Made by a program: the position numbers and the translations under genes
NCBI GenBank assembly: GCA_018714895.1
Contig: DVMQ01000018.1
Location: forward strand, 2,491 to 26,490
Direction of reading: 5' to 3'
From: Candidatus Coprovicinus avistercoris
GTDB lineage: Bacteria; Actinomycetota; Coriobacteriia; Coriobacteriales; Atopobiaceae
Length of the DNA: 24,000 bases
In this document: positions 6,928 to 24,000 of the stretch, piece after piece
How the letters are laid out: the number at the start of each line of letters is the position of its first letter
How positions within the stretch are numbered: the stretch's first letter is position 1
The notes under the pieces: generated by a model
The model's input: the letters and a program-made list of their open reading frames with translations, nothing else
Told to the model about the DNA's origin: nothing
The model's database searches: none

Positions 6928-6978
6928 TAGTCGTCCTGTGAACTTGGGCACGAGTTGTCCTGTGTAAGAAGAAATGTG

Positions 6979-7016: not shown

Positions 7017-7054
7017 GCGAAGGATGATCTTGCGCTGAGCAGAGCAACTATGCT

Positions 7055-7084
7055 TTGCTAGAATCCATATTGTATCCGTACTAT
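7055..7084 (+). promoter_or_regulatory. Candidate promoter for ftsEX (TTGCTA-N18-TACTAT)
   Basis: TTGCTA at 7055-7060 and TACTAT at 7079-7084. This coincides with the ORF-track TTG start, which argues that TTG is not the real start codon. Pattern match only. Confidence 0.3.
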
Positions 7085-7105
7085 AAACGCAACAAAGGAG
7101 CTCTT

Positions 7106-8101: not shown

Positions 8102-9011
8102 TCTGGGTTATTCACTGCGTGAAGCAGGCCATCACTTTCGGAGGAATCTCTCTACGGCCTTAGGTGCTGTAGTTACCATTTTCCTTTCACTCTTTATTAT
8201 CGGTTTGTTTGCTATTGGTTCGATCATGCTTAACAACATGGTTGGAAGTGTGGAGGATCAAGTAACTATTCAGGCATTTCTTTCCGATGATGCCGATCAG
8301 AGTGCGGTAGAGGCTCTTCAGGATAAGATTTCTGGATGGGACAACGTTCAGTCGGTTACCTATAAGAGCAAGGATGAGGCTCTTCAGGAGTATCGCGAGA
8401 CGATGTCAAACCGCAATGCTGAGGCTGCTGTTGCGGCACTTGATGGCGTCAATCCTGTGCCCGCATCTCTCGTTATTCAGCTCGACGACTCCCGTGAAGT
8501 GGCTGCTGTCGCCGATAAACTGATCGCTGATTCAGACTTCCAGGCAGTTGCTGACGATGAAGATGCGTCTGCTTCAGTCCTCTACGGACAAGGTACTGTT
8601 GAGCGTCTCTTTAGTGTGACAGCCTATATCCGTATTGTCGCAATCGTGCTGGTAGCCCTCTTGGTCTTTGTGGCATTTGTCTTTATCAACAACACCATTC
8701 GTTTGGCCATTACGGCTCGTCGCCGTGAGATTGCTATCGAACGTTTGGTAGGTGCATCAAATAGCTTCATTCGCGGGCCCTTCCTTACCGAAGGTGTTCT
8801 TGAAGCTTTGTTTGGCGCACTGCTCTCCATTGGTGCTTTGCAGCTGCTTTGCTCGTTCGTGCTGCCGAGATTTGAAGAGAGCCTCTCGTTCCTTACCCTT
8901 ACGGTTGATACAAGCTCGCTCTTGCACATCTATGCGGCGCTTATTTTGGCAGGCGTTGTCATTGGTGCCTTCGGTTCATTCATTGCAATGAGGCGCTACC
9001 TCAAGGTTTAA
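8091..9011 (+). CDS. ftsX: Cell-division permease-like protein FtsX
   Basis: 306 aa with FtsX topology: an N-terminal TM helix, an extracellular domain (VTIQAFLSDDADQSAVEALQDKISGWDNVQSVTYKSKDEALQEY), then three C-terminal TM helices containing REIAIERLVGASNSFIRGPFLTEG. ATG 8091 overlaps the ftsE stop at 8099-8101. Confidence 0.9.
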   Translation: MASNLGYSLREAGHHFRRNLSTALGAVVTIFLSLFIIGLFAIGSIMLNNMVGSVEDQVTIQAFLSDDADQSAVEALQDKISGWDNVQSVTYKSKDEALQEYRETMSNRNAEAAVAALDGVNPVPASLVIQLDDSREVAAVADKLIADSDFQAVADDEDASASVLYGQGTVERLFSVTAYIRIVAIVLVALLVFVAFVFINNTIRLAITARRREIAIERLVGASNSFIRGPFLTEGVLEALFGALLSIGALQLLCSFVLPRFEESLSFLTLTVDTSSLLHIYAALILAGVVIGAFGSFIAMRRYLKV

Positions 9012-9036
9012 TACCTTGTACAGGATTTGAGTTTCT

Positions 9037-9075
9037 GAGGCGGTGCAGCCATAAGGCGCGCCGCCTCTTATCTTT
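9037..9075 (+). terminator. Intrinsic terminator after ftsX
   Basis: GAGGCGGTGC (9037-9046) pairs with GCGCCGCCTC (9058-9067), including one G-U. The loop is 11 nt and TTATCTTT follows. Confidence 0.55.
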
Positions 9076-9087
9076 GGAGGACCTCGC

Positions 9088-11139: not shown

Positions 11140-11180
11140 GCAAACACATGCGCAGATAAACGAGCGCAGAAGGGACATAT

Positions 11181-12050
11181 ATGAGTACTGGTGTTGCAAA
11201 CCAAGCATATTCTGGGCTTGCCGATGATCTTACCCGTGCTGAAGGACTCCTTGTAGCAGGGCGAGATGAAGATGCGGAGAAACTGCTTTCCTCACTTGCT
11301 GAGGATGCTGAAGAGTATGTCGATAGAAATTGTCATACCACGGATAAGGTGCAGTGGTTTAGTTTCCCAACACTTTTTGAACGCCTTTGTTATCGACGTG
11401 TTGAGAATGACCCTCGCGAGCTGTATGACGTGGGGGAACCTCTGGATAGGCTTTATGCTGATTTAGGCTTAGCCTGTGTACGTCTTGGCGATTATGCCCG
11501 TGCTACCGAGGCGCTCAAACAGGCAGTGCGCTGGAACCCGATGGAGTGTGCTTACAGGCTTAACTTGGCAGATCTTTATCTCACGAATGGTGATGAGCGC
11601 GAGTTTCTCGCTCTGAGTTTTTCAGTATTTGAGCGCGCGAGCAATGCACAGCATCTTGTGCGCGCATACCTCAATTTTGCGCGCCATTATGAGCGGACAG
11701 GGCAAGCGGAGCTTCGTGCTGCATGTCTGCGCTGTGCACGTCGACTCGAGATGCCTTCCGAACAATTGGAAGCGGAGCTTGATGCCGTAAAAGGAACTGA
11801 CGCTGATCCCGATTCACTAGACGATGCGCGTGCTCAGCAAATTTTGGCAGAAGAAGGTTTACCTGAAGGGGCAAATGCTGAGGTTGCTGTCTGTTTGCTT
11901 ATGTGTGCTTCCGACGCAGCCGAAGTGGGCGATAAGAACCTTGCCACTGATTTGACGGTTCGAGCACGTGATCTTATTGGTGCGCCTGCGGCGTCCGCAC
12001 TTATCCAGCTCATTCATGAGACTGATGAGGAGGCAGATACGCATGCCTAA
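11181..12050 (+). CDS. Acidic TPR-like helical-repeat protein of unknown function
   Basis: 289-aa ORF with AAGGGA 5 nt upstream of ATG 11181. TPR-like segments include LGLACVRLGDYARATEALKQAVRWNPMECAYRLNLADLYLTNGD and LVRAYLNFARHYERTGQAELRAACLRCA. The protein is strongly enriched in D and E. Its stop overlaps the smpB start (ATGCCTAA). Confidence 0.7.
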   Translation: MSTGVANQAYSGLADDLTRAEGLLVAGRDEDAEKLLSSLAEDAEEYVDRNCHTTDKVQWFSFPTLFERLCYRRVENDPRELYDVGEPLDRLYADLGLACVRLGDYARATEALKQAVRWNPMECAYRLNLADLYLTNGDEREFLALSFSVFERASNAQHLVRAYLNFARHYERTGQAELRAACLRCARRLEMPSEQLEAELDAVKGTDADPDSLDDARAQQILAEEGLPEGANAEVAVCLLMCASDAAEVGDKNLATDLTVRARDLIGAPAASALIQLIHETDEEADTHA

Positions 12051-12513
12051 GCGCGAGCGTAAACTCATTGCCCGAAATCGTTCGGCACGCCATGAATACT
12101 TTGTTGATGAAACTTTCGAAGCAGGAATTGAGCTTCGAGGCACGGAAGTAAGAAGCTTGCGTGAGCGTGCATGCCAGATAACAGATGCCTTCTGTTTGAT
12201 TCGCGGAGGGCAGTGTTGGCTTCATGGTGTGCACTTGCACCCATACTCACATGGCAATATTTGGAACGTTGATCCGGATAGAAAGCGCCGTCTATTGTTG
12301 CACCGTCGCCAAATTGACTATCTTGACGGTAAGCTTAGAGCAAAAGGCATGGCGCTCATCCCGCTTGAGTTGTATTTCAACGAACATAACCGAGTCAAGC
12401 TACTTATTGGGCTCTGTAGGGGTAAGAAGCTCTATGACAAGCGAGCGGATATGGCTCGCAGAGATGTTGATCGCGAGATTCGTCGTGCTATCAAGGAGAA
12501 GAACCGCTACTAG
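12043..12513 (+). CDS. smpB: SsrA-binding protein SmpB
   Basis: MPKRERKLIARNRSARHEYFVDETFEAGIELRGTEVRSLR... and ...DPDRKRRLLLHRRQIDYL...GKKLYDKR are classic SmpB sequences. The start is ATG 12043, with GAGGAGG at 12027-12033. The ORF-track extension from 11968 lies inside the upstream gene. Confidence 0.93.
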   Translation: MPKRERKLIARNRSARHEYFVDETFEAGIELRGTEVRSLRERACQITDAFCLIRGGQCWLHGVHLHPYSHGNIWNVDPDRKRRLLLHRRQIDYLDGKLRAKGMALIPLELYFNEHNRVKLLIGLCRGKKLYDKRADMARRDVDREIRRAIKEKNRY

Positions 12514-12561
12514 GTGCTACAGATAGGCTGTACGTATTGGGTGGTTCAGAGGAGGCAGGTT

Positions 12562-13071
12562 ATGGATCCAAAGGCGCTCTTCAAGTTTTCATCCGGTTTG
12601 TATGTTGTAGCCGCTTCACACGGCGACGATGTTGGTGCTTGTCTCATCAACACTGGTATGCAACTTACAGCAGAACCCCTGCAAGTGCAGGTTGTTATCA
12701 ATAAAGAAAACCATACGGAATCTGTTGTTCGTGATGCCGGGAGCTTTTCTCTTGCTGTTGTGAGCGAGAAGGCAGACATGATGTATATCGGCCGTTTTGG
12801 ATTCCGCTCCTCAGTTGATTTCGACAAGTTTAGTGGCATTCCATGTGAGCACACATCGCTGGGCGATCCTTATACCACCGAGTGCACGTGCGCAATGCTG
12901 GGATGCAAGGTTGTCCAAACGCTTGATGTTGGTACGCACACGCTTTTTGTTGGAGAAGTGGTGGACGCGGAAGTACTTTCCGACGATGCGCCTATGACCT
13001 ACACCTACTACCATACGGTTCTTAAGGGAAAGACGCCCGCCAAGGCATCTTCTTATATTCCTCAGGGATAG
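12562..13071 (+). CDS. Flavin reductase-like (FMN-binding split-barrel) domain protein
   Basis: MDPKALFKFSSGLYVVAASHGDDVGACLINTGMQLTAEPLQVQVVINKENHT...THTLFVGEVVDAEVL matches the flavin reductase / flavoredoxin-type domain. ATG 12562 lies 6 nt after GGAGG (12551-12555). Confidence 0.8.
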   Translation: MDPKALFKFSSGLYVVAASHGDDVGACLINTGMQLTAEPLQVQVVINKENHTESVVRDAGSFSLAVVSEKADMMYIGRFGFRSSVDFDKFSGIPCEHTSLGDPYTTECTCAMLGCKVVQTLDVGTHTLFVGEVVDAEVLSDDAPMTYTYYHTVLKGKTPAKASSYIPQG

Positions 13072-13176
13072 AAATACGCTGGCTGGGTATCATCAGGCAA
13101 GAGCTATGAAAAATAGCGGCCAGATTTGTTTCTAGAGGAAGTGTTGCCTCGTATGAGGCTGAAGGAAGGAGTTCTT

Positions 13177-13320
13177 ATGAGCGACGAGAAGAAGACCTAT
13201 ACATTCCGTTGCACCGTTTGTGGCTTTGAGGTAACTGTTGATACCCCCGAGCTGCCCGAGGACTATGTTTGCCCAACCTGCGGTGTTGGCCCTGAGCTGT
13301 TTGAGCTCGTCGAGGACTAA
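13177..13320 (+). CDS. Small rubredoxin-type iron-binding protein (47 aa)
   Basis: MSDEKKTYTFRCTVCGFEVTVDTPELPEDYVCPTCGVGPELFELVED has two CxxCG knuckles (CTVCG, CPTCG) with rubredoxin-like spacing. GAAGGAAGGA (13161-13170) precedes ATG 13177. Confidence 0.75.
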   Translation: MSDEKKTYTFRCTVCGFEVTVDTPELPEDYVCPTCGVGPELFELVED

Positions 13321-13397
13321 AACCCGTTCAAGTGTTTCGAAGCTCGTGCTTAAGACATGAGGATTTGAGCACCGTTGCTCTGTAAACGGATGTAGCA

Positions 13398-13428
13398 AAA
13401 GCCTGCCATTCAAGAAATGGCAGGCTTT
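13398..13428. terminator. Bidirectional intrinsic terminator between convergent genes
   Basis: AAAGCCTGCCATT (13398-13410) pairs perfectly with AATGGCAGGCTTT (13416-13428) around a 5-nt loop. It has an A-tract on the 5' side and a T-rich 3' side. It overlaps the stop of the minus-strand gene (13427-13429). Confidence 0.65.
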
Positions 13429-13939
13429 ATTGTTGCCACTGAGGCAGAGATGAGGCTGCAAGCTCAATGTAATGAATGGCGTTTGAAAGGTTGTCCGCCA
13501 TTTCTTCTGATGAAAGTTTTCGGATAAGGCGTGCAGGACATCCAAAGGCAACATGTCCATCAGGGATGATTGTTCCCTCAGGTACCAGGGCTCCAGCGCC
13601 AATGAGGCAGTTGCTGCCAACGTGAGCGCCATCGAGCACAATAGCGCCCATGCCGATAAGAGTGGCGTTATCAATGGTACATCCATGCAAGATAGCGCTG
13701 TGTCCCACGGTGACATGTTTGCCGAGCACAACAGGACGGTCCTTCGAAACATGTATGACGGCATTGTCTTGCACATTGGTACCAGCGCCAATGGTGATAG
13801 GCGCCTCGTCACCTCTTAGAACTGCTCCAAACCAAATGTTTGCCTGAGAGTTAAGTGTTACATCGCCTTGGATGGTTGCGTTTAAGGCAACCCATGGCCC
13901 CGATACAGTCTTTTGTGGTCTTTTATCCAGCTGCGTCAT
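13427..13939 (-). CDS. Gamma-class carbonic anhydrase family / left-handed beta-helix (hexapeptide-repeat) protein, YrdA/PaaY/CaiE-like
   Basis: Hexapeptide repeats with conserved His positions: IWFGAVLRGDEAPITIGAGTNVQDNAVIHVS...VTVGHSAILHGCTIDNATLIGMGAIVLDGAHVGSNCLIGAGALV. The start is ATG 13939 (GAGG 6 nt upstream on the minus strand), not the ORF-track 14011. Confidence 0.85.
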   Translation of the reverse strand: MTQLDKRPQKTVSGPWVALNATIQGDVTLNSQANIWFGAVLRGDEAPITIGAGTNVQDNAVIHVSKDRPVVLGKHVTVGHSAILHGCTIDNATLIGMGAIVLDGAHVGSNCLIGAGALVPEGTIIPDGHVAFGCPARLIRKLSSEEMADNLSNAIHYIELAASSLPQWQQ

Positions 13940-14130
13940 CTTGCGCCTCAAACTTTCAATGCGTGGTAAGACTTTGATTAGAACAGGCTCTTTCGATCTC
14001 TTATGACACAAGGTATATCAATAAAGACCTGTAAATCATGGATATATGCGGGTATACTACCGTGGCAAGAGTTTGTTTGCCAACTCATTTGCACGTTGAC
14101 ATTTGTATGGTGGTTTTTAAACCTCCTTTT

Positions 14131-14499
14131 GGGGGCGACTGGTTTCGACAGGGTAGTTCTGAGGTGGGCAGCAGGTCGTGGTCTCCTCGCCACGTTAAAC
14201 AGGGGTACCGTCAAATTGAATTGACGACAATAACTCTTATGAGCCTCAGCTGGCTCTTGCTGCTTAATTAAAATAGCAGCCGTCAATGCGGGAGTTGCTC
14301 CTGCTCTCGCGGCGACGTCACTCTAGGGAGCTGCGCACATGGACGTGGTTGGTATGCCGTGTGCTAAGGCCGAACCAACTGGAATGCAGCGTGCCAGTTA
14401 TCGAGCATAATGCATTCGAGATCTAATCGATAACTGAGCCTGGAGACACCTGCCAGGGGATTGCTTTGGACCGGAGTTCGATCCTCCGCGCCTCCACCA
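14131..14499 (+). ncRNA. ssrA: Transfer-messenger RNA (tmRNA, SsrA)
   Basis: The 5' end GGGGGCGACTGGTTTCGACAGGG and the 3' end GGAGTTCGATCCTCCGCGCCTCCACCA form a tRNA-Ala-like acceptor stem with a G3:U pair and an encoded CCA. An internal tag frame ends GCT CTT GCT GCT TAA (..ALAA stop) at 14253-14267. Confidence 0.93.
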
Positions 14500-14507
14500 T
14501 CATTTCC

Positions 14508-14553
14508 GCAGGTTTTCTACGTTTATGCTGGTAGAAAGCCTGCGTTTTCTTTG
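14508..14553 (+). terminator. Intrinsic terminator after ssrA
   Basis: GCAGGTTTTCTAC (14508-14520) pairs with GTAGAAAGCCTGC (14531-14543), including one G-U. GTTTTCTTTG follows. Confidence 0.7.
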
Positions 14554-14577
14554 TATATCTCATATTTCTTATGATAT

Positions 14578-14602
14578 TTTTGGCAGATTTTGGCAGATGC
14601 CA
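14578..14602. repeat. Perfect tandem 10-bp duplication TTTTGGCAGA x2, ending in the palindrome TGGCA-GA-TGCCA
   Basis: TTTTGGCAGA occurs at 14578-14587 and again at 14588-14597. TGGCAGATGCCA at 14591-14602 is an inverted repeat. Function unknown. Confidence 0.5.
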
Positions 14603-14843
14603 TCCCTGCCGGAACTTTCACTGCTGACCGAATTTATCGCGTCATCAGGAATGGGGCGAAACCTCTGGGGTAGCTAAAGTCACTGGAGGTTTTGGATAAA
14701 AACGTCATAATGAAGATTACAATATAGTTTCGGGATTCCAATTCCGAAGTTTGTGTCGCAATGCGTGTAAACGTCAACTCGGGCAAGTAGTGGCTTGCCC
14801 TTAAGGTTTGATTGCCTATGTAGGCGGTCAGAAGGAGGAAACA

Positions 14844-16058
14844 ATGGGACGTTTTACTAACCCGCGTGACCTGTATTTTGGCGAGGGTGCTCGTCATGAG
14901 GTGAAGAACCTCAAGGGTTCCAAGGCCGTTATCGTTACCGGCGGCGGCTCCATGCGTCGTGGCGGCTTCCTGCAGGAACTCGAGGCAGACCTCAAAGAGG
15001 CTGGCTTCGAAGTCAAGCTTATCGAGGGCGTTGAGTCCGATCCGTCTGTAGAGACAGTCATGAAGGGCGCAGCCGTCATGTCTGAGTTCGAGCCTGACTG
15101 GATCGTTGCTATTGGTGGCGGCTCTCCTATCGACGCTGCTAAGGCCATGTGGATTAAGTACGAGTATCCCGACACCACGTTTGAGGATATGTGCAAGGTC
15201 TTTGGCCTGCCTGAGCTCCGCACCAAGGCTCACTTCTGCGCCATTTCCTCCACCTCTGGCACCGCTACTGAGGTAACTGCATTCTCGATCATCACCGATT
15301 ATGCTAAGGGCATCAAGTTCCCGATTGCCGACTTCCAAATTACTCCTGACGTGGCAATTGTTGACCCTGAGCTTACCTACACCATGCCTGCCAAGCTGTG
15401 CGCACACACCGGTATGGACGCTCTGACTCACGCCATTGAGTCCTACGTTTCCACTGCAGCCTCCATGTATACCGAGGCCAATTCACTCCACGCCATCCGT
15501 GAGATCGTCAAATGGCTGCCCGAGTCCTACAAGGGCGACAAAGAGGCACGTCAGCACATGCACGATGCTCAGTGCATCGCTGGTATTGCTTTCTCCTCTG
15601 GCCTGCTCGGCATCGTTCACTCCATGGCACACAAGACCGGCGCTGCCTTCACCGGCGACCACATTATCCATGGTTGCGCCAACGCTATGTACCTCGGCAA
15701 GGTCATCCAGTTCAACTCCAAGGTCCCCGAGGCCAAGACTAAGTATGCCTACATCGCCAAGGAAATCCTGCACCTCCCCGGCGAGACCGAGGACGAGCTC
15801 GTTGCTGCACTCGTACAGGAGATCCGCGACCTCAACGACAAGCTGGACATTCCGCAGGGCATCAAGAACTACGGCAAGGGCGGCGTAAAGGCCGACGAGT
15901 CCATCATCGACTACGCCGAGTTCGAGGAGAAGAAGAGCCGCATTGCTGTTGACGCTATTGGTGACGCCTGCACTGGCTCCAACCCGCGCCAGCCGACGCC
16001 GGAAGAGATGGAGAAGCTCCTCGAGTGCGTCTACAACGATGTGGATGTTGACTTCTAA
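14844..16058 (+). CDS. Iron-containing (group III) alcohol dehydrogenase, similar to the ADH domain of AdhE
   Basis: 404 aa. It has GGGSMRRGG, WIVAIGGGSPIDAAKAMW (the Fe-ADH GGGSxxD motif) and metal-binding His motifs (HTGMDALTHAIESY; HSMAHKTG; HGCANA). The start is ATG 14844, preceded by GAAGGAGGA (14831-14839). Codon usage is strongly C/G-ending. Confidence 0.9.
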   Translation: MGRFTNPRDLYFGEGARHEVKNLKGSKAVIVTGGGSMRRGGFLQELEADLKEAGFEVKLIEGVESDPSVETVMKGAAVMSEFEPDWIVAIGGGSPIDAAKAMWIKYEYPDTTFEDMCKVFGLPELRTKAHFCAISSTSGTATEVTAFSIITDYAKGIKFPIADFQITPDVAIVDPELTYTMPAKLCAHTGMDALTHAIESYVSTAASMYTEANSLHAIREIVKWLPESYKGDKEARQHMHDAQCIAGIAFSSGLLGIVHSMAHKTGAAFTGDHIIHGCANAMYLGKVIQFNSKVPEAKTKYAYIAKEILHLPGETEDELVAALVQEIRDLNDKLDIPQGIKNYGKGGVKADESIIDYAEFEEKKSRIAVDAIGDACTGSNPRQPTPEEMEKLLECVYNDVDVDF

Positions 16059-16085: not shown

Positions 16086-16118
16086 ACGGCCGAGGCTTTC
16101 GAGTCTCGGCCGTTTTTG
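16086..16118 (+). terminator. Intrinsic terminator after the ADH gene
   Basis: ACGGCCGAGGCT (16086-16097) pairs with AGTCTCGGCCGT (16102-16113) around a TTCG tetraloop. A T5 run follows at 16113-16117. Confidence 0.75.
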
Positions 16119-16167: not shown

Positions 16168-16201
16168 AAACAAAAAGGGGTGTTGGACAATCCAACACCC
16201 C
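16168..16201 (-). terminator. Intrinsic terminator after yjjW (minus strand)
   Basis: An 11-bp perfect stem, GGGGTGTTGGA (16177-16187) with TCCAACACCCC (16191-16201), has a 3-nt loop. On the minus strand TTTTTGTTT follows (plus-strand AAACAAAAA at 16168-16176). Confidence 0.75.
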
Positions 16202-16226
16202 TTGAGCTTTGTCTTAAGAGAATAAG

Positions 16227-17066
16227 CTAGCTTACAACGACTTTGCCAAAGCAAAGTTCGTGCGCAAGAGCCTCAATAGCATCCATACGCTCATCGGAAG
16301 GAGAGGGAGCGGTTGCCATGGGGCCCTTAACGCCAAATACGCGGAAACGCATGAGGCGAATACGGGTTGAGCTTACACGCTCGCCAAGGGTATCGGCTAT
16401 GCCGCGTACAGCATCCTCTGGATCGTTCCATCCTTCGGTAACGATAACGCGAACTTCCTCAAGCTTGTTGTGCTCGGAGAGATAGGCGAGGTTCTTTCGA
16501 ACCATTTTTCCATCTGTTCCCGTAAGCTTGCAGAACCAATCGTCATCCCACGATTTAACGTCAAGCATGACGCCGTCTGCCACTTTGAGCAGATCTGTAT
16601 AGTTGGCAAAATCAATTGTTCCGTTTGAATCGATAAGCGTTCCAATGCCAGCAGCTTTGCACTTTTGGAACAACTCATACATAAAATCGGGGTAGAGCAT
16701 GCATTCGCCACCCGAGCATGTAATGCCACGAATAAATGGAGCATATCCGCTTACCTGTTCAAACACATCCTCTGCCGTGAGATATTTGATACGTGGCGAA
16801 GAGTGATTGGGACATACATTGATGCAGGTGTCGCACTTAACGCACTTATCAGGATCCCATTCAACGGCGCCAGCAACAATGGAAAGCGCATTGGTGGGGC
16901 ACGCTTTTACGCATGTGCCACATCCCACGCAGAGGCGTTGCGTCTCAGGATTGTGACAATAAGCGCAATGAATATTGCAGCCCTGAACAAAAATGGATGT
17001 ACGAGCACCTGGGCCATCTACCAGGGAAAATGGAATGATATTGTTAACAGGAACATGCGCAGACAT
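16227..17066 (-). CDS. yjjW: Glycyl-radical enzyme activating enzyme, YjjW family (radical SAM with two extra ferredoxin-like 4Fe-4S motifs)
   Basis: The N-terminus IPFSLVDGPGARTSIFVQGCNIHCAYCHNPE carries the CX3CX2C radical-SAM motif at 16956-16979. CVGCGTCVKACP and CVKCDTCINVCP follow. The 279-aa length and its position directly downstream of a YjjI-type GRE fit the family. Confidence 0.88.
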   Translation of the reverse strand: MSAHVPVNNIIPFSLVDGPGARTSIFVQGCNIHCAYCHNPETQRLCVGCGTCVKACPTNALSIVAGAVEWDPDKCVKCDTCINVCPNHSSPRIKYLTAEDVFEQVSGYAPFIRGITCSGGECMLYPDFMYELFQKCKAAGIGTLIDSNGTIDFANYTDLLKVADGVMLDVKSWDDDWFCKLTGTDGKMVRKNLAYLSEHNKLEEVRVIVTEGWNDPEDAVRGIADTLGERVSSTRIRLMRFRVFGVKGPMATAPSPSDERMDAIEALAHELCFGKVVVS

Positions 17067-17088
17067 ATGCCCTCCCCTGCATTGAGGT

Positions 17089-17123
17089 AAAGAAAAGCCC
17101 CGCTACGCGCAAGGCGCAACGGG
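17089..17123 (-). terminator. Terminator-like hairpin (possible partial terminator or attenuator) between yjjI and yjjW
   Basis: The minus strand reads CCCGTTGCGC-CTTGC-GCGTAGCGGG (a 10-bp stem including two G-U pairs), then G and CTTTTCTTT. The hairpin starts 22 nt after the yjjI stop. The U-tract ends 23 nt before the yjjW ATG. Confidence 0.5.
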
Positions 17124-17144
17124 ACTTAAACGTAGCCATAAGAC

Positions 17145-18662
17145 TTACAAACGAACCTTACGGTCGGCAAGGTCGTTAGCGCGCCAGTTGCCCTCACCGT
17201 CGTGAGAGGTGTCGGCAAGAACTGCCTCGCCGCGAGCGTACTTCTCCATCTCGGAACGCTTCACCAAGAAGCCAGTGATGCGAACGAGGTCGGAATCGGA
17301 GGAGTAGAAGGAGAGGTATTTGTCATCGATGGCGAAAGCGCCCTTAATAACGTCGAGAATAGCCTCAGGGTTCTTCTCGGCGGTGGGCTCAACGGGGAAG
17401 ATGTCAGAAACGCCTGCGTTGAAGTACTTGTGCATGCTTGCGCACTGACGGATGTGATCATAGAAGACCTCAGGCTCGTCGCCAACCTTGATACGAACGC
17501 CCGGTGTGATGCCCACCTGATCGGCAAAGCCGGCCTGTGCATGCAGGGTGAAGCGGCCGCCGGCAACCTCTGAGTAAACAGCGTCAAACTCGTTGACCTG
17601 GTCGTAGATCTTCTGGCAGATCTGCTGGGCGAGCTCATTGCCCTCAGGATCGGTGCCATAGGCACGGTCATCATCGAAGTGCAGCAGCTCCTTGATGCAC
17701 TCGCTCATGCCGGCAACGCCGAACATAGCGGTAAAGCGGTCGCGGCTCAGCAGGCCTTCCTTCACCAGGAATGAAGAGTCGAAGAAGTGAGACTGCTCAA
17801 CCTCAAAACGAATGCGGTCATTCATGTAGTTGCAGAGCTCAGCGGTGGCAGAGGGGAGGATGTTGTTCATAAAGTCGTCTACGCTCGAGGACATGCGAGC
17901 AAGGCCAGGGAGCAGCAGACGATCGAGGCTGTAGGCACCGCCGCCAAGTGGCAAAACGTTGTAGCAGCTTACGACGGTGTAGTCGCCTGGATAGGTGTTT
18001 ACGTGCATGGGGTGGTTTGCGAAGGCGGGGTTAGCGCACTTCATGGCAGCCTCAATGCAGAGAATCATGAAGTCATCAGGTGTGATGTTGGGGTCATACT
18101 TCATGGTGAGGTTGGGGCATGCGTTCTGTGTGTCAATCATGGCCTGAAGCAGCAGGCGTCCGGCGCGGGTGTCCTCAGGGCCAATGTTGGCGTGGCAGTA
18201 GCCAGAAGCTACGGTGCGATCAATGTAGTTCAGGAAACGGTGGAGGCGAGGAAGCACCTCGTCGTCGTCCATGTCGGTAATAAACGGATCGATGATCTTA
18301 TCGAGCTGGCCACAGTAGACAGGACGGCTGGTGACGGAAGGCACGTTGTCATACAGCATAGCAAGGCCCCAAAGCAGGTCGTCAAGTGTCTCAGGCTTGT
18401 CGAGACGAAGGAACTCAGAGCCCTGCTCAGCAAACAGGCCATAGTTGGGGCAGATGTAGCGAGGACGATAAGGAGCCTTGCCCTCGGTCATGTCATCGAG
18501 GCCGCGAGCGGCGAAGAATTTATCGAACTCTTTGGTTGTCTTAATGGGATTGCAGTTGTTCTCAGCAGCTTGGGCAAGATGAAGCAGCTTCTGCTTATAG
18601 GTGAGATTGCTTGCCGTAATAATGTCTAAGTACTCTTTTTCAGTGCTTTTATCGACGCTCAT
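17145..18662 (-). CDS. yjjI: YjjI-family (DUF3029) short glycyl-radical enzyme; reaction unknown
   Basis: 505 aa, compared with about 516 aa for E. coli YjjI as I recall. The C-terminal glycyl-radical fingerprint is SDLVRITGFLVK (RITGF at 17268-17282, Gly codon at 17271-17273). An internal candidate thiyl loop reads YTVVSCYNVLPLGGG. A YjjW-type activase follows. AAGGAGGAG precedes ATG 18662. Confidence 0.88.
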   Translation of the reverse strand: MSVDKSTEKEYLDIITASNLTYKQKLLHLAQAAENNCNPIKTTKEFDKFFAARGLDDMTEGKAPYRPRYICPNYGLFAEQGSEFLRLDKPETLDDLLWGLAMLYDNVPSVTSRPVYCGQLDKIIDPFITDMDDDEVLPRLHRFLNYIDRTVASGYCHANIGPEDTRAGRLLLQAMIDTQNACPNLTMKYDPNITPDDFMILCIEAAMKCANPAFANHPMHVNTYPGDYTVVSCYNVLPLGGGAYSLDRLLLPGLARMSSSVDDFMNNILPSATAELCNYMNDRIRFEVEQSHFFDSSFLVKEGLLSRDRFTAMFGVAGMSECIKELLHFDDDRAYGTDPEGNELAQQICQKIYDQVNEFDAVYSEVAGGRFTLHAQAGFADQVGITPGVRIKVGDEPEVFYDHIRQCASMHKYFNAGVSDIFPVEPTAEKNPEAILDVIKGAFAIDDKYLSFYSSDSDLVRITGFLVKRSEMEKYARGEAVLADTSHDGEGNWRANDLADRKVRL

Positions 18663-18673
18663 AGCTCCTCCTT

Positions 18674-19399
18674 CTATTTGCCCTGCGACAGGCCCGTTTC
18701 GAACTCGTGCTGTATTTCGCTATCCAGGCGCGCACGTGCCTCCTGGTCGATAACGATTTTGTGCCCCTCACGATGGAGCATATGTCGCTGCTCTAACTCG
18801 TCCAAAGAACGCGACACGGTCTTAGTGCTTACATTAGCTTTCTCAGCCAGCTCGCTGCGAGATGCCTTAATAACTACATCACCTGTTTTGCTCTGCTGCC
18901 AACAATACTGGCACAGCACAAACATGAGACGCTTAACTCCGGTCCATCCCATAAGATCGCGCTCAGTTCCCGATTGCCGCAAAAGGCTTTTCACAACCGA
19001 ACGAGAACGAGCGAGAAGTGCCTCGGGATCGGACTTGAGCCAGGCGAGATAATCATCGCGTCGTGCAGAGATGAACTCACAGTCGGTTAATGCAATGAGC
19101 GAGCCGTGGAAAAGCGGGCTTTCTGAAAGGACTTCCATCTCCCCAAAGACAGCCGGAGCCTCAAACTCGTCAATTGCAAAAGTGGAGCCGGAAACTCCGT
19201 GTGTCGTCGTACGAACACGACCAGAACAAAGCAGATAAACACGAGTGCATCTGTCGAGCATGTGCACAAGAATTTCCCCACGTTTGAGACGAACAAGATG
19301 GGCGCGTGAAAGAACACCAGCAGGAATGCGGCTCACCCAAGGCAGCACAGCATCACGCACCTGCGGATCCAATGCTGAGATGTAGGTAAGTACGTCCAT
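18674..19399 (-). CDS. Crp/Fnr-family transcriptional regulator (cNMP-binding-like beta-barrel plus C-terminal HTH)
   Basis: Barrel region: LKRGEILVHMLDRCTRVYLLCSGRVRTTT...EAPAVFGEMEVL. C-terminal HTH: ASRSELAEKANVSTKTVSRSLDELEQRHML. I call ATG 19399 (GGAGG 5 nt upstream) rather than the ORF-track 19645, whose extension crosses an AT-rich, promoter-like region. The stop lies 11 nt before the yjjI ATG. Confidence 0.85.
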   Translation of the reverse strand: MDVLTYISALDPQVRDAVLPWVSRIPAGVLSRAHLVRLKRGEILVHMLDRCTRVYLLCSGRVRTTTHGVSGSTFAIDEFEAPAVFGEMEVLSESPLFHGSLIALTDCEFISARRDDYLAWLKSDPEALLARSRSVVKSLLRQSGTERDLMGWTGVKRLMFVLCQYCWQQSKTGDVVIKASRSELAEKANVSTKTVSRSLDELEQRHMLHREGHKIVIDQEARARLDSEIQHEFETGLSQGK

Positions 19400-19456
19400 G
19401 CTGTCCTCCAGCATATTGCTTGCACCACGCTTGTATGCGAAAGGTCTACGCCGTTT

Positions 19457-19492
19457 TGGGCAAATCTCATGCCATAACACGTGATTTGCCCA
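19457..19492. promoter_or_regulatory. 10-bp perfect inverted repeat TGGGCAAATC-N16-GATTTGCCCA upstream of the Crp/Fnr-yjjI-yjjW operon
   Basis: TGGGCAAATC at 19457-19466 and GATTTGCCCA at 19483-19492, with CACGTG near the centre. This lies 58-93 nt upstream of ATG 19399. It could be an operator or a 5'-UTR hairpin. Confidence 0.35.
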
Positions 19493-19521
19493 CATTTTAA
19501 GGAGATGAAAGTGGACTTTCG

Positions 19522-19535
19522 AGGACATATGTCCT
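19522..19535. promoter_or_regulatory. 14-bp perfect palindrome AGGACATATGTCCT in the regulator's promoter region
   Basis: AGGACATATGTCCT at 19522-19535 equals its own reverse complement. It sits next to a very AT-rich tract (19537-19560). Confidence 0.3.
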
Positions 19536-19622
19536 GAAAAAATAATAAAAATTAAACTTTGTGATGAAAGGCAATATTCTATCGGCGAATGGTATGTCAA
19601 CGAGCTTGATAAGGGGGAACTT

Positions 19623-19661
19623 AAAGAAAAAACCGGCTGCACCAACGAGGCACAGCCGGTG
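19623..19661 (-). terminator. Intrinsic terminator after psuG (minus strand)
   Basis: The minus strand reads ACCGGCTG-(13-nt loop)-CAGCCGGT followed by TTTTTTCTTT (plus-strand AAAGAAAAAA at 19623-19632). This separates psuG from the downstream regulator operon. Confidence 0.7.
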
Positions 19662-19689
19662 AAACGGTCAACTATAAAGAGGCGATCAT

Positions 19690-20619
19690 TTACTGCTCAA
19701 TGGCACGAAGTGCGACAGCAGTCTTTGCGCCAAGGGCAACATTGTTAAAAACGAGCTGGATGTTTGAATCGAGAGAATCGCCACCAGTCAGCTCAGAGAC
19801 CTTAGCGAGCAAGAATGGCGTGGTTTCCTTGCCGTGGATGCCCTGCTCTTCAGCTTCAGCAATAGCCTGATCAATAGCAGCATCGATGGTGGCTTTGTCC
19901 ATCGAATACTCTTCAGGAATAGGATTGCCAACGAGTACGCCGCCCTTGAGGCCCATCTCACGCTTGGTGTGGAAGATCTGAGCAAGCTCTTCGGGGGTGT
20001 CGACGCGATAGTCTACCGAGAAGCCCGAGTGACGGGTATAGAAGGCAGGGAGTTCTTCGGTCTGATAACCAAGAACAGGTACGCCGCGCGTCTCGAGGAA
20101 TTCAAGGGTGAGACCAAGATCGAGAATGGATTTTGCGCCAGCGCAAATGACCATTACAGGAGTATTGGCAAGCTCTTCGAGGTCAGCAGAGATGTCCATG
20201 GTGGTTTCGGCGCCACGATGAACGCCGCCAATGCCACCGGTAGCGAAGACCTCAATGCCTGCCATATGGGCAATAATCATCGTTGTGGTAACAGTGGTGG
20301 CTCCGTCCATGCCACGGGAGCACAAAACTGCCAGGTCGCGACGAGAGGCCTTGGTTACGTCATGGCCCTTCTTGCCGAGATAGTCGATCTCTTCTGGTGA
20401 GAGGCCTACGCGCAAACGTCCACCAATAACAGCAATGGTGGCAGGAATTGCGCCATTATCACGGATAATCTGCTCAACCTTAAGAGCGGTCTCCTTATTC
20501 TGCGGATAGGGCATGCCATGGGAAATGATGGTGGATTCAAGTGCGACGACTGGCTTACCCTCGTCAAGTGCCTGCTGAACCTCGGGAGAGATGTCGAGGA
20601 ACTTGTTGAGATTCTGCAT
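19690..20619 (-). CDS. psuG: Pseudouridine-5'-phosphate glycosidase
   Basis: 309 aa: MQNLNKFLDISPEVQQALDEGKPVVALESTIISHGMPYPQN...ATGGIGGVHRGAETTMDISADLEELA...VICAGAKSILD. This is the classic PsuG/YeiN (IndA-like) sequence. GGAAGGAG precedes the ATG. Confidence 0.93.
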   Translation of the reverse strand: MQNLNKFLDISPEVQQALDEGKPVVALESTIISHGMPYPQNKETALKVEQIIRDNGAIPATIAVIGGRLRVGLSPEEIDYLGKKGHDVTKASRRDLAVLCSRGMDGATTVTTTMIIAHMAGIEVFATGGIGGVHRGAETTMDISADLEELANTPVMVICAGAKSILDLGLTLEFLETRGVPVLGYQTEELPAFYTRHSGFSVDYRVDTPEELAQIFHTKREMGLKGGVLVGNPIPEEYSMDKATIDAAIDQAIAEAEEQGIHGKETTPFLLAKVSELTGGDSLDSNIQLVFNNVALGAKTAVALRAIEQ

Positions 20620-20705
20620 TGGTACTCCTTCCGTCAGGCCGTTACTCGGCCATGTTTACTCACATACTATGCTGCAGTCTTTGAAAAAGACTGTTGCTGA
20701 CAGGA

Positions 20706-21800
20706 TTAGTCTTGATGCGCACGAGCAATGCGCTCGCGCACCTTATCTGCGGTTATCTCAGTATTGATTGTCGCAGCAGATTCCACAGCAAGAGAAGAGG
20801 TAGCAAGTCCGGCAAGACCCTGTGCTCTAAGCCCCTCTCCTTCGAGTGCAGACCATGCGATGGCTGCCATCATGGAATCTCCGGCACCGGTTGCATTGAC
20901 AACGTTGCTTTGCATGATAGGAAGCAGTATCTGCTGCTCATGATCGGCGCAGAGAAGGCCGCGGGTATCGAGGGAGATAAATACTTGCTGAAGCCCGGTA
21001 TCGAGCAATTTATTTGCAGCAAGTCTGAGAGACTCTTCGTCATGAATGGCAATACCAGAGAGCACTTCAGCTTCGAGTCTATTGGGCTTAAGCGTGTGAA
21101 AACGTCCTAGAGCGCCGCGTAGTTTAGGTGCTTTGGCGGTAGAAACCGGATCGCAGTATAGAGGTGTTGTTACGTGCTCAGCGAGCCAACGAAGTGTTTC
21201 TGCAGGAATATTAGTGTCTACAACACAAACGGAAGCGCGCTCAATGAGATCGAGCTTCCGCTCAAGCAGTTGAGGAACAAGTTTGTCGTAAATGCCCATA
21301 TCAGAGATGGCCAGTTCCATATCACCGGTTTCATCCATGATGAACAAATAGGTGCTCGTGGCCTCTCCGGGAATGGTAATGGAATCGGTGACGTCGATTC
21401 CAGCAGCCCGGCAGCTCTCTTGAAGCTCGCGTGCATGACCGTCATCTCCGAAGGCTGAGATGAAATGAACATCGCAGCCAAGTAGTGCCATGTTGTGAGC
21501 AATATTGCGTCCTGCACCGCCAGGGGAAAGACGCACTGTTCCGGGGTTGGAGTCATGCGCCACCAAAGGCCGCTGTGGTTTTCCAGCAATGTCCATATTG
21601 GCGCCACCGATAACAACCGCATATGGCTTTTCTGAGAGCACGTACTGGCGGCCAAGAATTGCGCCTTTACGCATGAGGTTGGAGATGTGAACAGCAACGG
21701 AAGAGCGAGAAATCTGAGCGCGGTCTGCAATCTCTTTTTGGGTAATGGAAGGATTTTCGCGAATCCATTCGAGGATCTGGCGCTCGCGCTCCGTGACCAT
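20706..21800 (-). CDS. psuK: PfkB-family carbohydrate kinase with an N-terminal winged-helix HTH domain (pseudouridine kinase-like, E. coli YeiI/PsuK type)
   Basis: N-terminal HTH: MVTERERQILEWIRENPSITQKEIADRAQISRSSVAVHISNLMRKGAILGRQY. A ribokinase-fold body follows (VVIGGANMDIAGK...GGAGRNIAHNMALLG...NATGAGDSMMAAI). It lies immediately upstream of psuG. GGAGG precedes the ATG. Confidence 0.82.
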   Translation of the reverse strand: MVTERERQILEWIRENPSITQKEIADRAQISRSSVAVHISNLMRKGAILGRQYVLSEKPYAVVIGGANMDIAGKPQRPLVAHDSNPGTVRLSPGGAGRNIAHNMALLGCDVHFISAFGDDGHARELQESCRAAGIDVTDSITIPGEATSTYLFIMDETGDMELAISDMGIYDKLVPQLLERKLDLIERASVCVVDTNIPAETLRWLAEHVTTPLYCDPVSTAKAPKLRGALGRFHTLKPNRLEAEVLSGIAIHDEESLRLAANKLLDTGLQQVFISLDTRGLLCADHEQQILLPIMQSNVVNATGAGDSMMAAIAWSALEGEGLRAQGLAGLATSSLAVESAATINTEITADKVRERIARAHQD

Positions 21801-21829
21801 TTTTACCTCCGTTGCGAAAAGTAGTCATT

Positions 21830-21868
21830 TGTTTGTAGCAAACATTTATTAAGAAAAGTAAATGTTTG
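21830..21868. promoter_or_regulatory. Cluster of three TGTTTG/CAAACA half-sites upstream of psuK (candidate operator)
   Basis: TGTTTG-TAG-CAAACA is a palindrome at 21830-21844. CAAACATTT (21839-21847) and AAATGTTTG (21860-21868) form a second 9-bp inverted repeat with a 12-nt spacer. The cluster lies 30-68 nt upstream of psuK ATG 21800. Confidence 0.35.
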
Positions 21869-22201
21869 TCTATGTCTTGCGCTGATTTTACGAAATTGAA
21901 TTAGGTCTGTAAAGCACAATTTCAAATTTCTTAAAACTGAAATAAATACCAGGAAATAAGCTATGCCAACAGGTGTTCAGAAAAAAGAGAAAATGCAATT
22001 CGGAGGTTTCAAATAAAGCATCCGTTCACGGAATAAGGGATGCCGCTCAGAGAACTGGACCACTTTCTCTTGTGGTAATGAACCGATTGGACGTTTAGAG
22101 TGCCCGAAATATTCCCTCCAGAGAGCTAAACAATTCTTTAGAATAGACAAGTGATAGTTCGAAGGATCGGATGGCCGCGAAATAAAGAAGAGGTGAGATG
22201 A

Positions 22202-23398
22202 ATGGAGAACCCCAAGCGAGTTTTTCTCATCGTCCTTGATAGTTTTGGTATTGGCGCGGAACCGGATGCTGCAGATTATGGTGACGAGGGAAGCAATACA
22301 CTTTGCGCTTGCGCCACAAGCGGCAAGCTTGTGATTCCTCATATGACAGAGCTTGGCTTGCTCAATATCGACGGTGCACTTGAGAGTCCCTATGACGTGA
22401 ATCTTACTCCTGTTAAGGATCCTAAAGGGGCATATGCACGTCTGCAAGAAGCTTCAAAGGGTAAAGATACAACCGTCGGACATTGGGAGATGGCGGGAGT
22501 AATTTCGCCGCGCAAGTTCCCAACGTATCCAGATGGTTTCCCAGCAGAGGTTATCGAAGCATTTGAGCGCGAGACGGGTCGTGGCGTGCTCTGCAATAAG
22601 CCTTATTCCGGTACTGATGTGATTCGCGACTATGGCGAAGAACATATGAAAACGGGCGACCTGATTGTATATACCTCAGCAGATAGCGTATTCCAGATTG
22701 CTGCTCATGAGGATATTGTCCCAGTTGAACAGCTTTATGAATACTGCAAGATTGCTCGTTCCATTCTTACGGGTGAACATGGTGTAGCACGCGTTATCGC
22801 CCGCCCATTTGTGGGTGAGCCTGGTAACTTCACGCGCACTTCTCGTCGACACGATTTCTCGTTGGAGCCTACGGGCACAACAATGCTTGATGTTCTTTTG
22901 GATGCGGGCTATGACGTTTTATCCGTAGGCAAGATTTACGACATCTTTGCTCATCGTGGCATTACTGATTTTGTATTCACATCAGGCAATGCCGAAGGCA
23001 TTGATCGCACCATTGAGTGGCTTGACCGCGATTTTAATGGTCTGTGCTTCACCAACCTCGTAGATTTTGACATGGTGTATGGCCATCGTAATGATCCTGA
23101 TGGATATGCAACGGCGCTTTCATACTTTGACTCAAAGCTTCCGGAGATTTGCGCTGGATTGCGAGAGAATGACCTGCTCATGATTACCGCCGACCATGGT
23201 TGTGATCCGGTAACGCCTTCAACAGATCATTCTCGTGAATATGTGCCGTGGCTCATATATGGCCAACATGTTCGTCCGGGAGTAAATTTGGGCACCCGCC
23301 CAACATTTGCTGATGTGGCCGAAACAATTTTGGACTATCTGGGTGAGCCAGCACTTGGGGTTGGTACGTCTCACGTACGTGAAATAGTGGAGGAGTAA
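22202..23398 (+). CDS. deoB: Phosphopentomutase
   Basis: 398 aa: KRVFLIVLDSFGIGAEPDAADYGDEGSNTL...GKDTTVGHWEMAG...ITADHGCDP. These are classic DeoB metal and phosphoserine motifs. AGAGGTGAGA precedes ATG 22202. Confidence 0.93.
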   Translation: MENPKRVFLIVLDSFGIGAEPDAADYGDEGSNTLCACATSGKLVIPHMTELGLLNIDGALESPYDVNLTPVKDPKGAYARLQEASKGKDTTVGHWEMAGVISPRKFPTYPDGFPAEVIEAFERETGRGVLCNKPYSGTDVIRDYGEEHMKTGDLIVYTSADSVFQIAAHEDIVPVEQLYEYCKIARSILTGEHGVARVIARPFVGEPGNFTRTSRRHDFSLEPTGTTMLDVLLDAGYDVLSVGKIYDIFAHRGITDFVFTSGNAEGIDRTIEWLDRDFNGLCFTNLVDFDMVYGHRNDPDGYATALSYFDSKLPEICAGLRENDLLMITADHGCDPVTPSTDHSREYVPWLIYGQHVRPGVNLGTRPTFADVAETILDYLGEPALGVGTSHVREIVEE

Positions 23399-23401
23399 TT
23401 T

Positions 23402-24000
23402 ATGGCAGCTACACCCACTCCGCACAATGCGGCCACAGAGGGACAGATTGCAAAAACGGTACTTATGCCAGGTGATCCTCTGCGCGCTCAATTTATTGCT
23501 GAGAACTACCTTGAGGATGCCGAGTGCTTCAATACGGTGCGCAATATGTTTGGCTACACCGGCACCTATCATGGTGAGCGCGTTTCAGTAATGGGCTCCG
23601 GTATGGGCATTCCTTCAATCGCAATTTATTCGTATGAGCTTTATAACTTCTACGATGTGGATGCGATTATTCGTATTGGTACGGCTGGTGGTCTGGCAGA
23701 AGATGTAGAGCTGCGCGATGTAGTTATCGGTATGGGTGCTTGCACCGATTCTAACTATGCCGCTCAGTTTGAGTTGCCAGGCACTATTGCACCTATCGCA
23801 AGCTGGGATTTATTGCGTCGTGCGACGCAGGCTGCTGAAAAGATTAACGTGCCTTATAAGGTCGGAAATATTCTATCATCAGATGTGTTTTATGCTGATC
23901 CTGAGGTCTCACGTAAATGGGCAAACATGGGCGTATTGGCCGTGGAAATGGAGTCTGCTGCACTGTATCTGAATGCTATGAAGGCTCACAAGCAAGCACT
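23402..24000 (+). CDS. deoD: Purine nucleoside phosphorylase, DeoD type (3' end beyond the window)
   Basis: This gene is absent from the ORF track because no stop occurs before the window end. My translation from ATG 23402 is MAATPTPHNAATEGQIAKTVLMPGDPLRAQFIAENYLEDAECFNTVRNMFGYTGTYHGERVSVMGSGMGIPSIAIYSYEL...LRDVVIGMGACTDSNY...LAVEMESAALY. It closely parallels E. coli DeoD. GGAGGAG at 23389-23395 lies inside the deoB 3' end, and the gap after the deoB stop is 3 nt. Confidence 0.9.
   Translation, partial: MAATPTPHNAATEGQIAKTVLMPGDPLRAQFIAENYLEDAECFNTVRNMFGYTGTYHGERVSVMGSGMGIPSIAIYSYELYNFYDVDAIIRIGTAGGLAEDVELRDVVIGMGACTDSNYAAQFELPGTIAPIASWDLLRRATQAAEKINVPYKVGNILSSDVFYADPEVSRKWANMGVLAVEMESAALYLNAMKAHKQA

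Follow-up and report, generated by a model that had tools for sequence, protein, structure and literature searches.

The glycyl radical enzyme YjjI and its activase YjjW recur among nucleoside salvage genes in diverse bacterial lineages

The glycyl radical enzyme YjjI and its activase YjjW are encoded side by side in the DNA analyzed here, a stretch of 24,000 nucleotides from contig DVMQ01000018.1 of Candidatus Coprovicinus avistercoris (Atopobiaceae; assembly GCA_018714895.1), hereafter called the window. The YjjI protein of the window belongs to a family that has been named but is still uncharacterised. A census of YjjI loci revealed that the pair is found repeatedly in operons for nucleoside import (Bmp-type ATP-binding cassette (ABC) transporters, NupC, NupG-like carriers) and nucleoside cleavage (Udp, DeoD, DeoA, Cdd, Add, Rih, PsuK/PsuG, DeoB, DeoC), usually under a dedicated Crp/Fnr-type regulator, a role taken by FNR in E. 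coli. The association is recurrent and strong, though not universal, and is concentrated in fermentative, often host-associated lineages. This context and the single-Cys active site, which resembles that of the class III ribonucleotide reductase NrdD, point to a reaction new to the glycyl radical superfamily. The reading that we favor, with a probability of roughly 45%, is that YjjI-YjjW may be an oxygen-sensitive glycyl-radical pair of anaerobic nucleoside utilisation, which would probably act on a ribosyl unit, with ribose-5-phosphate or ribose-1-phosphate as the first candidates, by a redox-neutral elimination.

YjjI loci were collected with up to 10 kb of flank on each side. The GTDB part drew on contigs from one genome per species and comprises the nearest 80 of at least 522 relatives. 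The metagenome part comprises the best 80 contigs, retrieved with a consensus of distant 50%-identity representatives as a guard against close-relative bias. The look-up part consists of 16 loci (L083-L090, L093-L094, L175-L178) and two E. coli loci, taken as exact-protein matches with precomputed Pfam annotation. At a YjjI identity of 70%, the 172 pooled loci form 25 lineages. Flanks of 5 kb or more to either side are available in 19 of them; these 19 and four lineages from the look-ups make up the 23 informative lineages of this sample of YjjI-bearing genomes. The taxonomic labels of the loci follow the record titles and the names of sequence clusters. Udp/DeoD, DeoB, DeoC, DeoA, PsuG, the Bmp transporter, Cdd, Add, NupC, and Rih were counted as nucleoside-specific. 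Overlaps between open reading frames (ORFs) were settled by cluster-size-guided resolution, and the counts use family hidden Markov models (HMMs) built from the window and E. coli proteins, because plain sequence clustering split divergent families. One-pass and iterated searches agree for all families other than PfkB, the count of which leaves out iterated-profile matches to ORFs antisense to deoB.

YjjW adjoins YjjI in 24 of the 25 lineages. When the neighboring ORFs were clustered free of prior expectation and annotated with Pfam, the top families after YjjW were a double-domain ABC ATPase, Crp, Bmp/PnrA, and PNP_UDP, and further top families were the BPD_transp_2 permease, DeoC, DeoB, PfkB, cytidine deaminase, and adenosine deaminase. 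Counted by lineage within 10 kb of yjjI, PNP/Udp, Bmp, and Crp occur in seven each, DeoB and PfkB in five, DeoC and Cdd in four, DeoA and Add in three, PsuG, NupC, and Rih in two, and a NupG-like carrier in one. Of the 23 informative lineages, 11 carry one or more nucleoside-specific genes within 10 kb of yjjI; at 3 kb the count is still 10. The signal is robust in nine: Atopobiaceae; Lachnospiraceae (Anthropogastromicrobium); Oscillospiraceae with a Spirochaetaceae metagenome-assembled genome (MAG); Caproiciproducens/Christensenellaceae; Tissierellia/Neobacillus; the metagenomic lineages 6, 7, and 24; and Enterobacterales. It is weak in Caloramator (PsuG in 1 of 10 loci) and Turicibacter (NupC in 1 of 4 loci, at a distance of 7.3 kb). 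The linked lineages thus cover Actinomycetota, several families of Bacillota, Enterobacterales, and one spirochaete MAG, with varying gene orders. Averaged over lineages, nucleoside genes have a density of 0.91 per 10 kb at 0-2.5 kb from yjjI, which declines to 0.29 per 10 kb at 7.5-10 kb; the density in E. coli K-12 is estimated at about 0.04 per 10 kb (roughly 20 such genes in 4.6 Mb). The probability of finding at least 10 linked lineages among 23 is 3e-7, 3e-5, or 1e-3 at an assumed per-lineage chance rate of 6, 10, or 15%, respectively; the association exceeds chance. The sequence-only reading of the window had proposed such a census and a link of YjjI to nucleoside or pentose metabolism. 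The enrichment outside enterobacteria and Atopobiaceae upholds the link, with the qualification that about half of the lineages lack it.

The gene arrangements (<>, divergent; ><, convergent) show how close the association can be. The conserved order in Atopobiaceae is deoD-deoB <> psuK-psuG-(crp)-yjjI-yjjW >< deoC ... Fe-ADH, where Fe-ADH is an iron-containing alcohol dehydrogenase. Directly after yjjW, 45 of the 67 loci carry deoC, verified as a true deoC by TIGR00126 (253 bits, cut-off 117), and Fe-ADH homologues are close to yjjW/deoC in 28 of the 67. As had been noted before, the window itself is without deoC, deoA, and a nucleoside transporter; because the deoB-deoD operon of its relatives runs on into bmp-ABC-permease-permease(-cdd-deoA), the window probably ends just short of the transporter genes. 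The arrangements in Bacillota often form one co-directional gene string, such as yjjI-yjjW-bmp-ABC-perm-perm-crp-udp-deoD-deoC-cdd (L165) and crp-yjjI-yjjW-bmp-ABC-perm-perm-cdd-deoA (L145). Caproiciproducens and its relatives have udp, deoB <> crp-yjjI-yjjW (L066-L071), other Bacillota crp-yjjI-yjjW >< udp followed by bmp-ABC (L081, L088-L090), and a further one ribokinase (rbsK)-yjjI-yjjW ... pyrimidine nucleosidase (rih) (L125). The order is udp-udk-bmp ... yjjI-yjjW-ABC-perm ... cdd in a member of Lachnospiraceae (L117); in Neobacillus, crp-yjjI-yjjW is followed by a NupG/LacY-type nucleoside:H+ symporter; and in the Spirochaetaceae MAG (L078), udp-bmp-ABC lies upstream of the pair. An ECF-type transporter (S component and two EcfA-like ATPases) takes the place of Bmp-ABC beside udp and yjjI in two loci of Caproiciproducens/Christensenellaceae (L066:3673-6889, L072:5734-8955).

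In Edwardsiella the order is deoCABD <> yjjI-yjjW >< nupC. The gene order of E. coli K-12 verified two statements of the sequence-only reading, namely that yjjW-yjjI is next to deoCABD, and that yeiL is beside psuT-psuG-psuK with yeiI nearby. In this genome, yjjW-yjjI is adjacent to and divergent from deoC-deoA-deoB-deoD, and yeiI, nupX-rihB, yeiL, and psuT-psuG-psuK are grouped together. An E. coli-derived protein of 574 amino acids with both YjjI and DeoC Pfam domains (P0124) was considered as a Rosetta-stone link and set aside as a probable assembly or gene-call artefact, because yjjI and deoC are divergent in E. coli K-12.

The regulator gene belongs with yjjI, because a Crp-type gene sits upstream of yjjI regardless of psu genes: it is directly upstream, with or without psu genes, in seven lineages, of which only two have psuG, and it is immediately 5' of yjjI in Bacillota without psu genes. 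Within Atopobiaceae, the presence of the regulator and that of psuG vary independently. The ORF listed for the regulator of the window runs to 19645 (TTG start), and alignment with yjjI-linked homologues moves the start to 19414. BLASTP aligned it with E. coli YeiL over only 40 residues (33% identity, 28.9 bits), and over the whole alignment it is 20% identical to YeiL as against 24-52% to the yjjI-linked regulators of other lineages, so orthology with YeiL was rejected. The suggestion that a Crp/Fnr-type regulator is paired here with psu genes, as YeiL is in E. coli, therefore fails: the gene goes with yjjI, not with psu. Its product is a regulator of yjjI and, in function, a counterpart of FNR, which activates E. 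coli yjjI directly according to FNR chromatin immunoprecipitation and expression data (PMC3688515). An anaerobic rise of yjjI (4.3-fold) and yjjW has also been reported in Yersinia intermedia (PMC3792023). The N-terminal cysteine cluster that holds the [4Fe-4S] center in FNR-type proteins was found neither in the 246-aa form of the window regulator nor in its yjjI-linked homologues.

The YjjI family is compact, with 73 clusters at 50% identity (E < 1e-30) among 1.84 billion representatives. No relative turned up among PDB sequences, whether the query was the YjjI protein or a 30-sequence profile, and Pfam gave a marginal match to PF13597 (NRDD; 27.8 bits). By profile alignment with hhalign, YjjI matches NrdD with 96% probability (E = 2e-9, 417 columns). 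An AlphaFold2 model built from 30 sequences has a mean predicted local distance difference test (pLDDT) score of 91.4, and its best PDB matches in Foldseek are all NrdD, with E-values down to 5e-17 (8p2s_B, query TM-score (TMq) 0.77) and a TMq of 0.70-0.77; PFL-like dehydratases form the next tier, with a TMq of about 0.67-0.74. As modeled, YjjI has the fold of a class III ribonucleotide reductase.

The radical glycine of YjjI is G464 (VRITGF), and G464 and R461 are invariant in the family. The motif around it, RITG[YF]LV, corresponds to RRITGYLVG in NrdD. C233 (SCYN) is the only Cys that is invariant in all 47 diverse family members compared, and hhalign pairs it with C384 in the finger loop of E. 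coli NrdD. The residues that serve reduction in NrdD are not kept: in the hhalign alignment, an invariant Y69 stands at the position of C175, Ala243 at that of N405, and Val or Ala at -2 in place of Met. The C-terminal Zn-binding Cys4 set, invariant in the NrdD alignment, has no counterpart in YjjI, which has no Cys past residue 407, and Pfam detected no ATP cone. Position 56 (window about 18495-18497) is Cys in 79% of the family representatives, Asp in the window protein, and His, Tyr, or Ser elsewhere. Asp occupies it in 52 of the 67 Atopobiaceae loci and in the Tissierellia/Neobacillus lineage. This switch does not track the presence of nucleoside neighbors, and the pattern would suit an acid/base residue better than a redox thiol. 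The invariant polar residues of the family include R68, R248, R390, H157, H374, E60, E302, D121, and D148; the three arginines would go well with an anionic substrate, for instance a phosphate ester.

The runner-up models for YjjW are the activase of hydroxyproline dehydratase (172 bits) and a PflC-type activase (160 bits), whereas NrdG reaches only 44-74 bits; Fer4 motifs lie at aa 45-87. YjjW thus appears to be an activase of the dehydratase/PflC type rather than of the NrdG type. These features bear on whether YjjI might be a stripped-down ribonucleotide or ribonucleoside reductase, which would convert salvaged ribonucleosides to deoxyribonucleosides for DNA or serve as an electron sink feeding the deo pathway. 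The NrdD-like fold, Cys loop, and Gly motif would fit such an enzyme, as would the adjoining nucleoside importers, kinases, and deoC/deoA, which handle deoxy compounds only. In Neobacillus, nrdD-nrdG, which encode the true class III reductase (L083:5051-7404), are located about 3 kb 5' of crp-yjjI-yjjW, so that two radical enzymes of this fold are neighbors; this too can be counted in its favor. A sole invariant Cys, Tyr69 and Ala at the positions of C175 and N405, the missing Met at -2, and the lack of the Zn-ribbon Cys4, the ATP cone, and an NrdG-type activase all speak against a reductase. Moreover, nrdD mutants of E. coli fail to grow under strict anaerobiosis despite having yjjI. We regard this role as improbable. 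Because YjjI has a single invariant Cys, none of the NrdD reduction residues, and a dehydratase-type activase, a redox-neutral elimination is likelier than an NrdD-style reduction.

As to the substrate, three sets of neighbors would each end in ribose-5-phosphate: PsuK with PsuG, a phosphorylase with DeoB, and a nucleoside hydrolase with ribokinase. This convergence, the fold resembling that of ribonucleotide reductase, and the arginine-rich invariant residues make the ribosyl unit the most economical candidate. In the mechanism that we envisage, the thiyl radical on C233 would take a ring hydrogen from the ribosyl unit, a start like that of ribonucleotide reductase; a neighboring hydroxyl would then depart and the hydrogen would be returned, giving a deoxy-keto pentose phosphate. 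A dehydrogenase, for example the neighboring Fe-ADH, could reduce this product, and DeoC could split the reduced compound into glyceraldehyde-3-phosphate and acetaldehyde. Glycerol dehydratase, acting with 1,3-propanediol dehydrogenase as an electron sink, would be a parallel.

A more specific version is that YjjI strips the 2-hydroxyl from free ribose-5-phosphate or ribose-1-phosphate, either as a reductase or as a dehydratase with a dehydrogenase, and that the deoxyribose-5-phosphate passes to DeoC. We give this version a slim chance. If true, it would open a route to deoxyribose that, as the first of its kind, bypasses ribonucleotide reductases working on nucleotides; it would also be a new anaerobic cleavage of pentose into C3 and C2 units with an electron sink built in.

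The neighboring genes also have a pyrimidine bias (uridine phosphorylase, cytidine deaminase, uridine kinase, pyrimidine nucleosidase, PsuG), and all of these enzymes yield uracil. YjjI might accordingly act on the released nucleobase, uracil or another pyrimidine, in an oxygen-independent base breakdown, with the ribose left to ordinary pentose metabolism. In one look-up locus (L087:12386-20543), the genes 3' of yjjI-yjjW encode an esterase, a LarA-like protein, a putative 2-thiouracil desulfurase, a DHO_dh protein with Fer4 (PreA-like), an amidohydrolase, a PrpD-like protein, and an M20 peptidase, which together look like a cluster for reductive pyrimidine degradation. That the pair precedes such genes favors action on the base, but a pathway of this kind copes with uracil on its own, with no radical enzyme. 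The fold and Gly motif of YjjI are nearest to the ribose-modifying NrdD, the purine-specific DeoD and Add are also among the neighbors (DeoD in the window too), and the three invariant arginines would be a better match for a phosphate ester than for a neutral base. A base as substrate therefore seems quite unlikely to us.

Several points weigh against a ribosyl-unit eliminase in nucleoside utilisation. About half of the informative lineages have a stand-alone yjjI-yjjW pair among unrelated genes: Proteus, Clostridium perfringens, Ferrimonas, Anoxybacter, Ancylomarina (Bacteroidota), another gammaproteobacterial genome, and several MAG lineages of Bacillota; Caloramator is likewise counted among those with unrelated neighbors. 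In C. perfringens, a DeoR-type regulator adjoins the stand-alone pair. Near yjjI, deoC is found in only four lineages and Fe-ADH in only two, and the neighbor sets converge on uracil as well as on ribose-5-phosphate. The lineages are not fully independent and the per-lineage chance rate is our own estimate; the local confidence of hhalign around Y69/NrdD C175 is only moderate; and the active-site residues are putative, being assigned from alignments. Finally, we know of no radical enzyme of this fold that deoxygenates or dehydrates a free sugar phosphate.

The lineages without nucleoside neighbors would be expected if the neighborhood arose from common anaerobic or catabolite control, or from synteny passed down by descent, and the substrate of YjjI had nothing to do with nucleosides. 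The CRP sites in the E. coli yjjI/deoC intergenic region belong to deoP2 (PMC4287617), and psuK-psuG appears to be a separate transcription unit in the window, both of which are in line with this explanation. However, the link recurs across at least three phyla, where the enzymes, their order, and their orientation differ and the genes often form one co-directional string; the nucleoside genes are top neighbors in the prior-free clustering, and their density decays with distance. We consider this explanation unlikely.

The features of the window are listed in Table 1. The genes that the sequence-only reading had named in 16227-24000 are all present according to HMM scores. The window YjjI is 100% identical to an annotated protein of Olsenella sp. 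Marseille-QA0557. The kinase fused to a helix-turn-helix (HTH) domain scores higher with the YeiI-type model PRK09954 (296 bits, cut-off 561) than with the PsuK model PRK09850 (234.5 bits, cut-off 540), both below threshold. The region of about 1 kb between the 226-aa ORF and the dehydrogenase gene (13813-14807) holds short ORFs only. In related Atopobiaceae, deoC and one more gene occupy the interval between yjjW and the dehydrogenase gene.

Table 1. Genes and predicted signals in the window (aa, amino acids; scores in bits with model cut-offs where given)
Feature	Position	Strand	Remarks
secA, release factor, ftsEX, RNase R, flavin reductase	1-13000		Housekeeping genes
226-aa ORF	13132-13812	-	Matches neither Pfam nor NCBIfam
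Iron-containing alcohol dehydrogenase (ADH)	14808-16058	+	PF00465 and PF25137; convergent with yjjW
Terminator-like hairpin for ADH gene	16086-16113	+	Partner of the hairpin 3' of yjjW
Terminator-like hairpin 3' of yjjW	16175-16203	-	13-bp stem, then T run
YjjW radical-SAM activase	16227-17066	-	Two-cluster ferredoxin insert; TIGR04041, 363.6 (cut-off 250.2)
Strong hairpin with T run, yjjI-yjjW gap	17095-17127	-	14-bp stem, 8 GC pairs
YjjI glycyl radical enzyme, 505 aa	17145-18662	-	TIGR04040, 597 (cut-off 498.3); PF11230, 680, full length
Crp/Fnr-family regulator, probable 246-aa form	18674-19414	-	cNMP_binding and HTH_Crp_2; directly upstream of yjjI
15-nt inverted repeat TGGGCAAATC...GATTTGCCCA	19457-19492		Between promoter-like site and probable crp start
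Promoter-like site upstream of regulator gene	19600-19573	-	
Terminator-like hairpin 3' of psuG	19632-19660	-	12-bp stem, 8 GC pairs, then T run
PsuG, pseudouridine-5'-phosphate glycosidase	19690-20619	-	PF04227, 458.7, model positions 1-291 of 291
HTH-fused PfkB kinase, YeiI/PsuK subgroup	20706-21800	-	HTH_24 at aa 4-48, PfkB at aa 60-347
Perfect 10-nt inverted repeat CAAACATTTA-N10-TAAATGTTTG	21839-21868		psuK/deoB divergent intergenic region
DeoB phosphopentomutase	22202-23398	+	NF003766, 528.9 (cut-off 256)
DeoD-type purine nucleoside phosphorylase	23402-24000	+	NF004489, 288.4 (cut-off 230); partial gene, runs past window end

The hairpins and the promoter-like site in Table 1 are matches to consensus patterns rather than measurements. 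These scans suggest three transcription units on the minus strand. Transcription of psuK-psuG is probably separate from that of crp-yjjI-yjjW, because a strong terminator-like hairpin follows psuG and a promoter-like site precedes the regulator gene. The hairpin in the 78-bp gap between yjjI and yjjW may lower the expression of the activase relative to that of the enzyme. An attenuating hairpin between pflB and pflA is a parallel. In most Bacillota loci yjjI and yjjW overlap or abut, unlike in the window. Both inverted repeats were rejected as conserved operators, since neither recurs in any other locus: that at 19457-19492 is absent upstream of yjjI in all other loci tested, and that at 21839-21868 from all 178 other loci. 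No match like the latter (0) is expected by chance across the window, and it could be an operator in this genome, perhaps one recognized by the HTH domain of the kinase.

Among the glycyl radical enzymes of E. coli, YjjI appears to be one of the last without a known reaction, the other orphans, PflD and YbiW, now having ligand-bound structures. In open-access papers and bioRxiv, no functional assignment for YjjI was found beyond a proposal from 2011, based on co-expression, of a role in nitrogen metabolism (PMC3228777), and YjjI did not come up in a 2026 review of the superfamily (PMC13450708), in which nothing relevant on nucleosides or on uncharacterized or orphan members was found. The recurrent nucleoside context is the first concrete, testable lead to the function of this long-orphan enzyme, and the census cuts the candidate substrates to ribose-5-phosphate, ribose-1-phosphate, ribonucleosides, their monophosphates, and uracil. 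If our favored reading is true, it would add a new reaction type to the branch of the superfamily that resembles ribonucleotide reductase. Nucleosides from RNA turnover are abundant in the gut, and YjjI is common in gut bacteria (Lachnospiraceae, Atopobiaceae, Turicibacter, Enterobacterales, C. perfringens), so a new radical step in nucleoside fermentation would matter for carbon and redox flow there.

Among known systems, the yjjW-yjjI locus of E. coli has the same two genes as the window. The two YjjI proteins are 39% identical, deoB and deoD adjoin in both, and both have a regulator of the Crp/Fnr family, which in E. coli is FNR and activates the genes anaerobically. The E. coli locus has no dedicated regulator, psu genes, or ADH gene, and the window no deoC or deoA. 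NrdD shares with YjjI the ten-stranded barrel, the finger-loop thiyl Cys, the RITG[YF]LV motif, and a tie to ribose-containing metabolites. However, identity is only about 12%, and YjjI is 100-200 residues shorter, without the ATP cone, the Zn-ribbon Cys4, and the conserved second catalytic Cys, Met, and Asn. Its activase has a ferredoxin insert and is dehydratase-like, and its genes stand in catabolic operons, not with genes for DNA precursors.

The single-Cys eliminases of the superfamily (glycerol and propanediol dehydratases, HypD, PflD/YbiW) resemble YjjI in that they have a single catalytic Cys, are served by a PflC-type activase that carries additional Fe-S clusters, and are encoded in catabolic operons. 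They carry a Cys-x-Glu motif, are about 800 aa long, and belong to PFL-like in Pfam, whereas YjjI has about 500 aa, carries the motif S-C-Y-N, and is closer to NrdD in structure. The entry titles of the PflD/YbiW structures (PDB 8id0, 8id7) show that the superfamily includes enzymes for sugar phosphates.

With respect to gene content, the Firmicute-type nucleoside operons (bmp/nupABC, deoC, cdd, pdp/udp, deoB) are also close: their gene set is found around yjjI-yjjW in loci of Lachnospiraceae, Oscillospiraceae, and other Bacillota, and just past deoD in Atopobiaceae. To our knowledge, the classical operons contain no radical enzyme; the yjjI loci add to this set a glycyl radical enzyme with its activase and a regulator of the Crp type.

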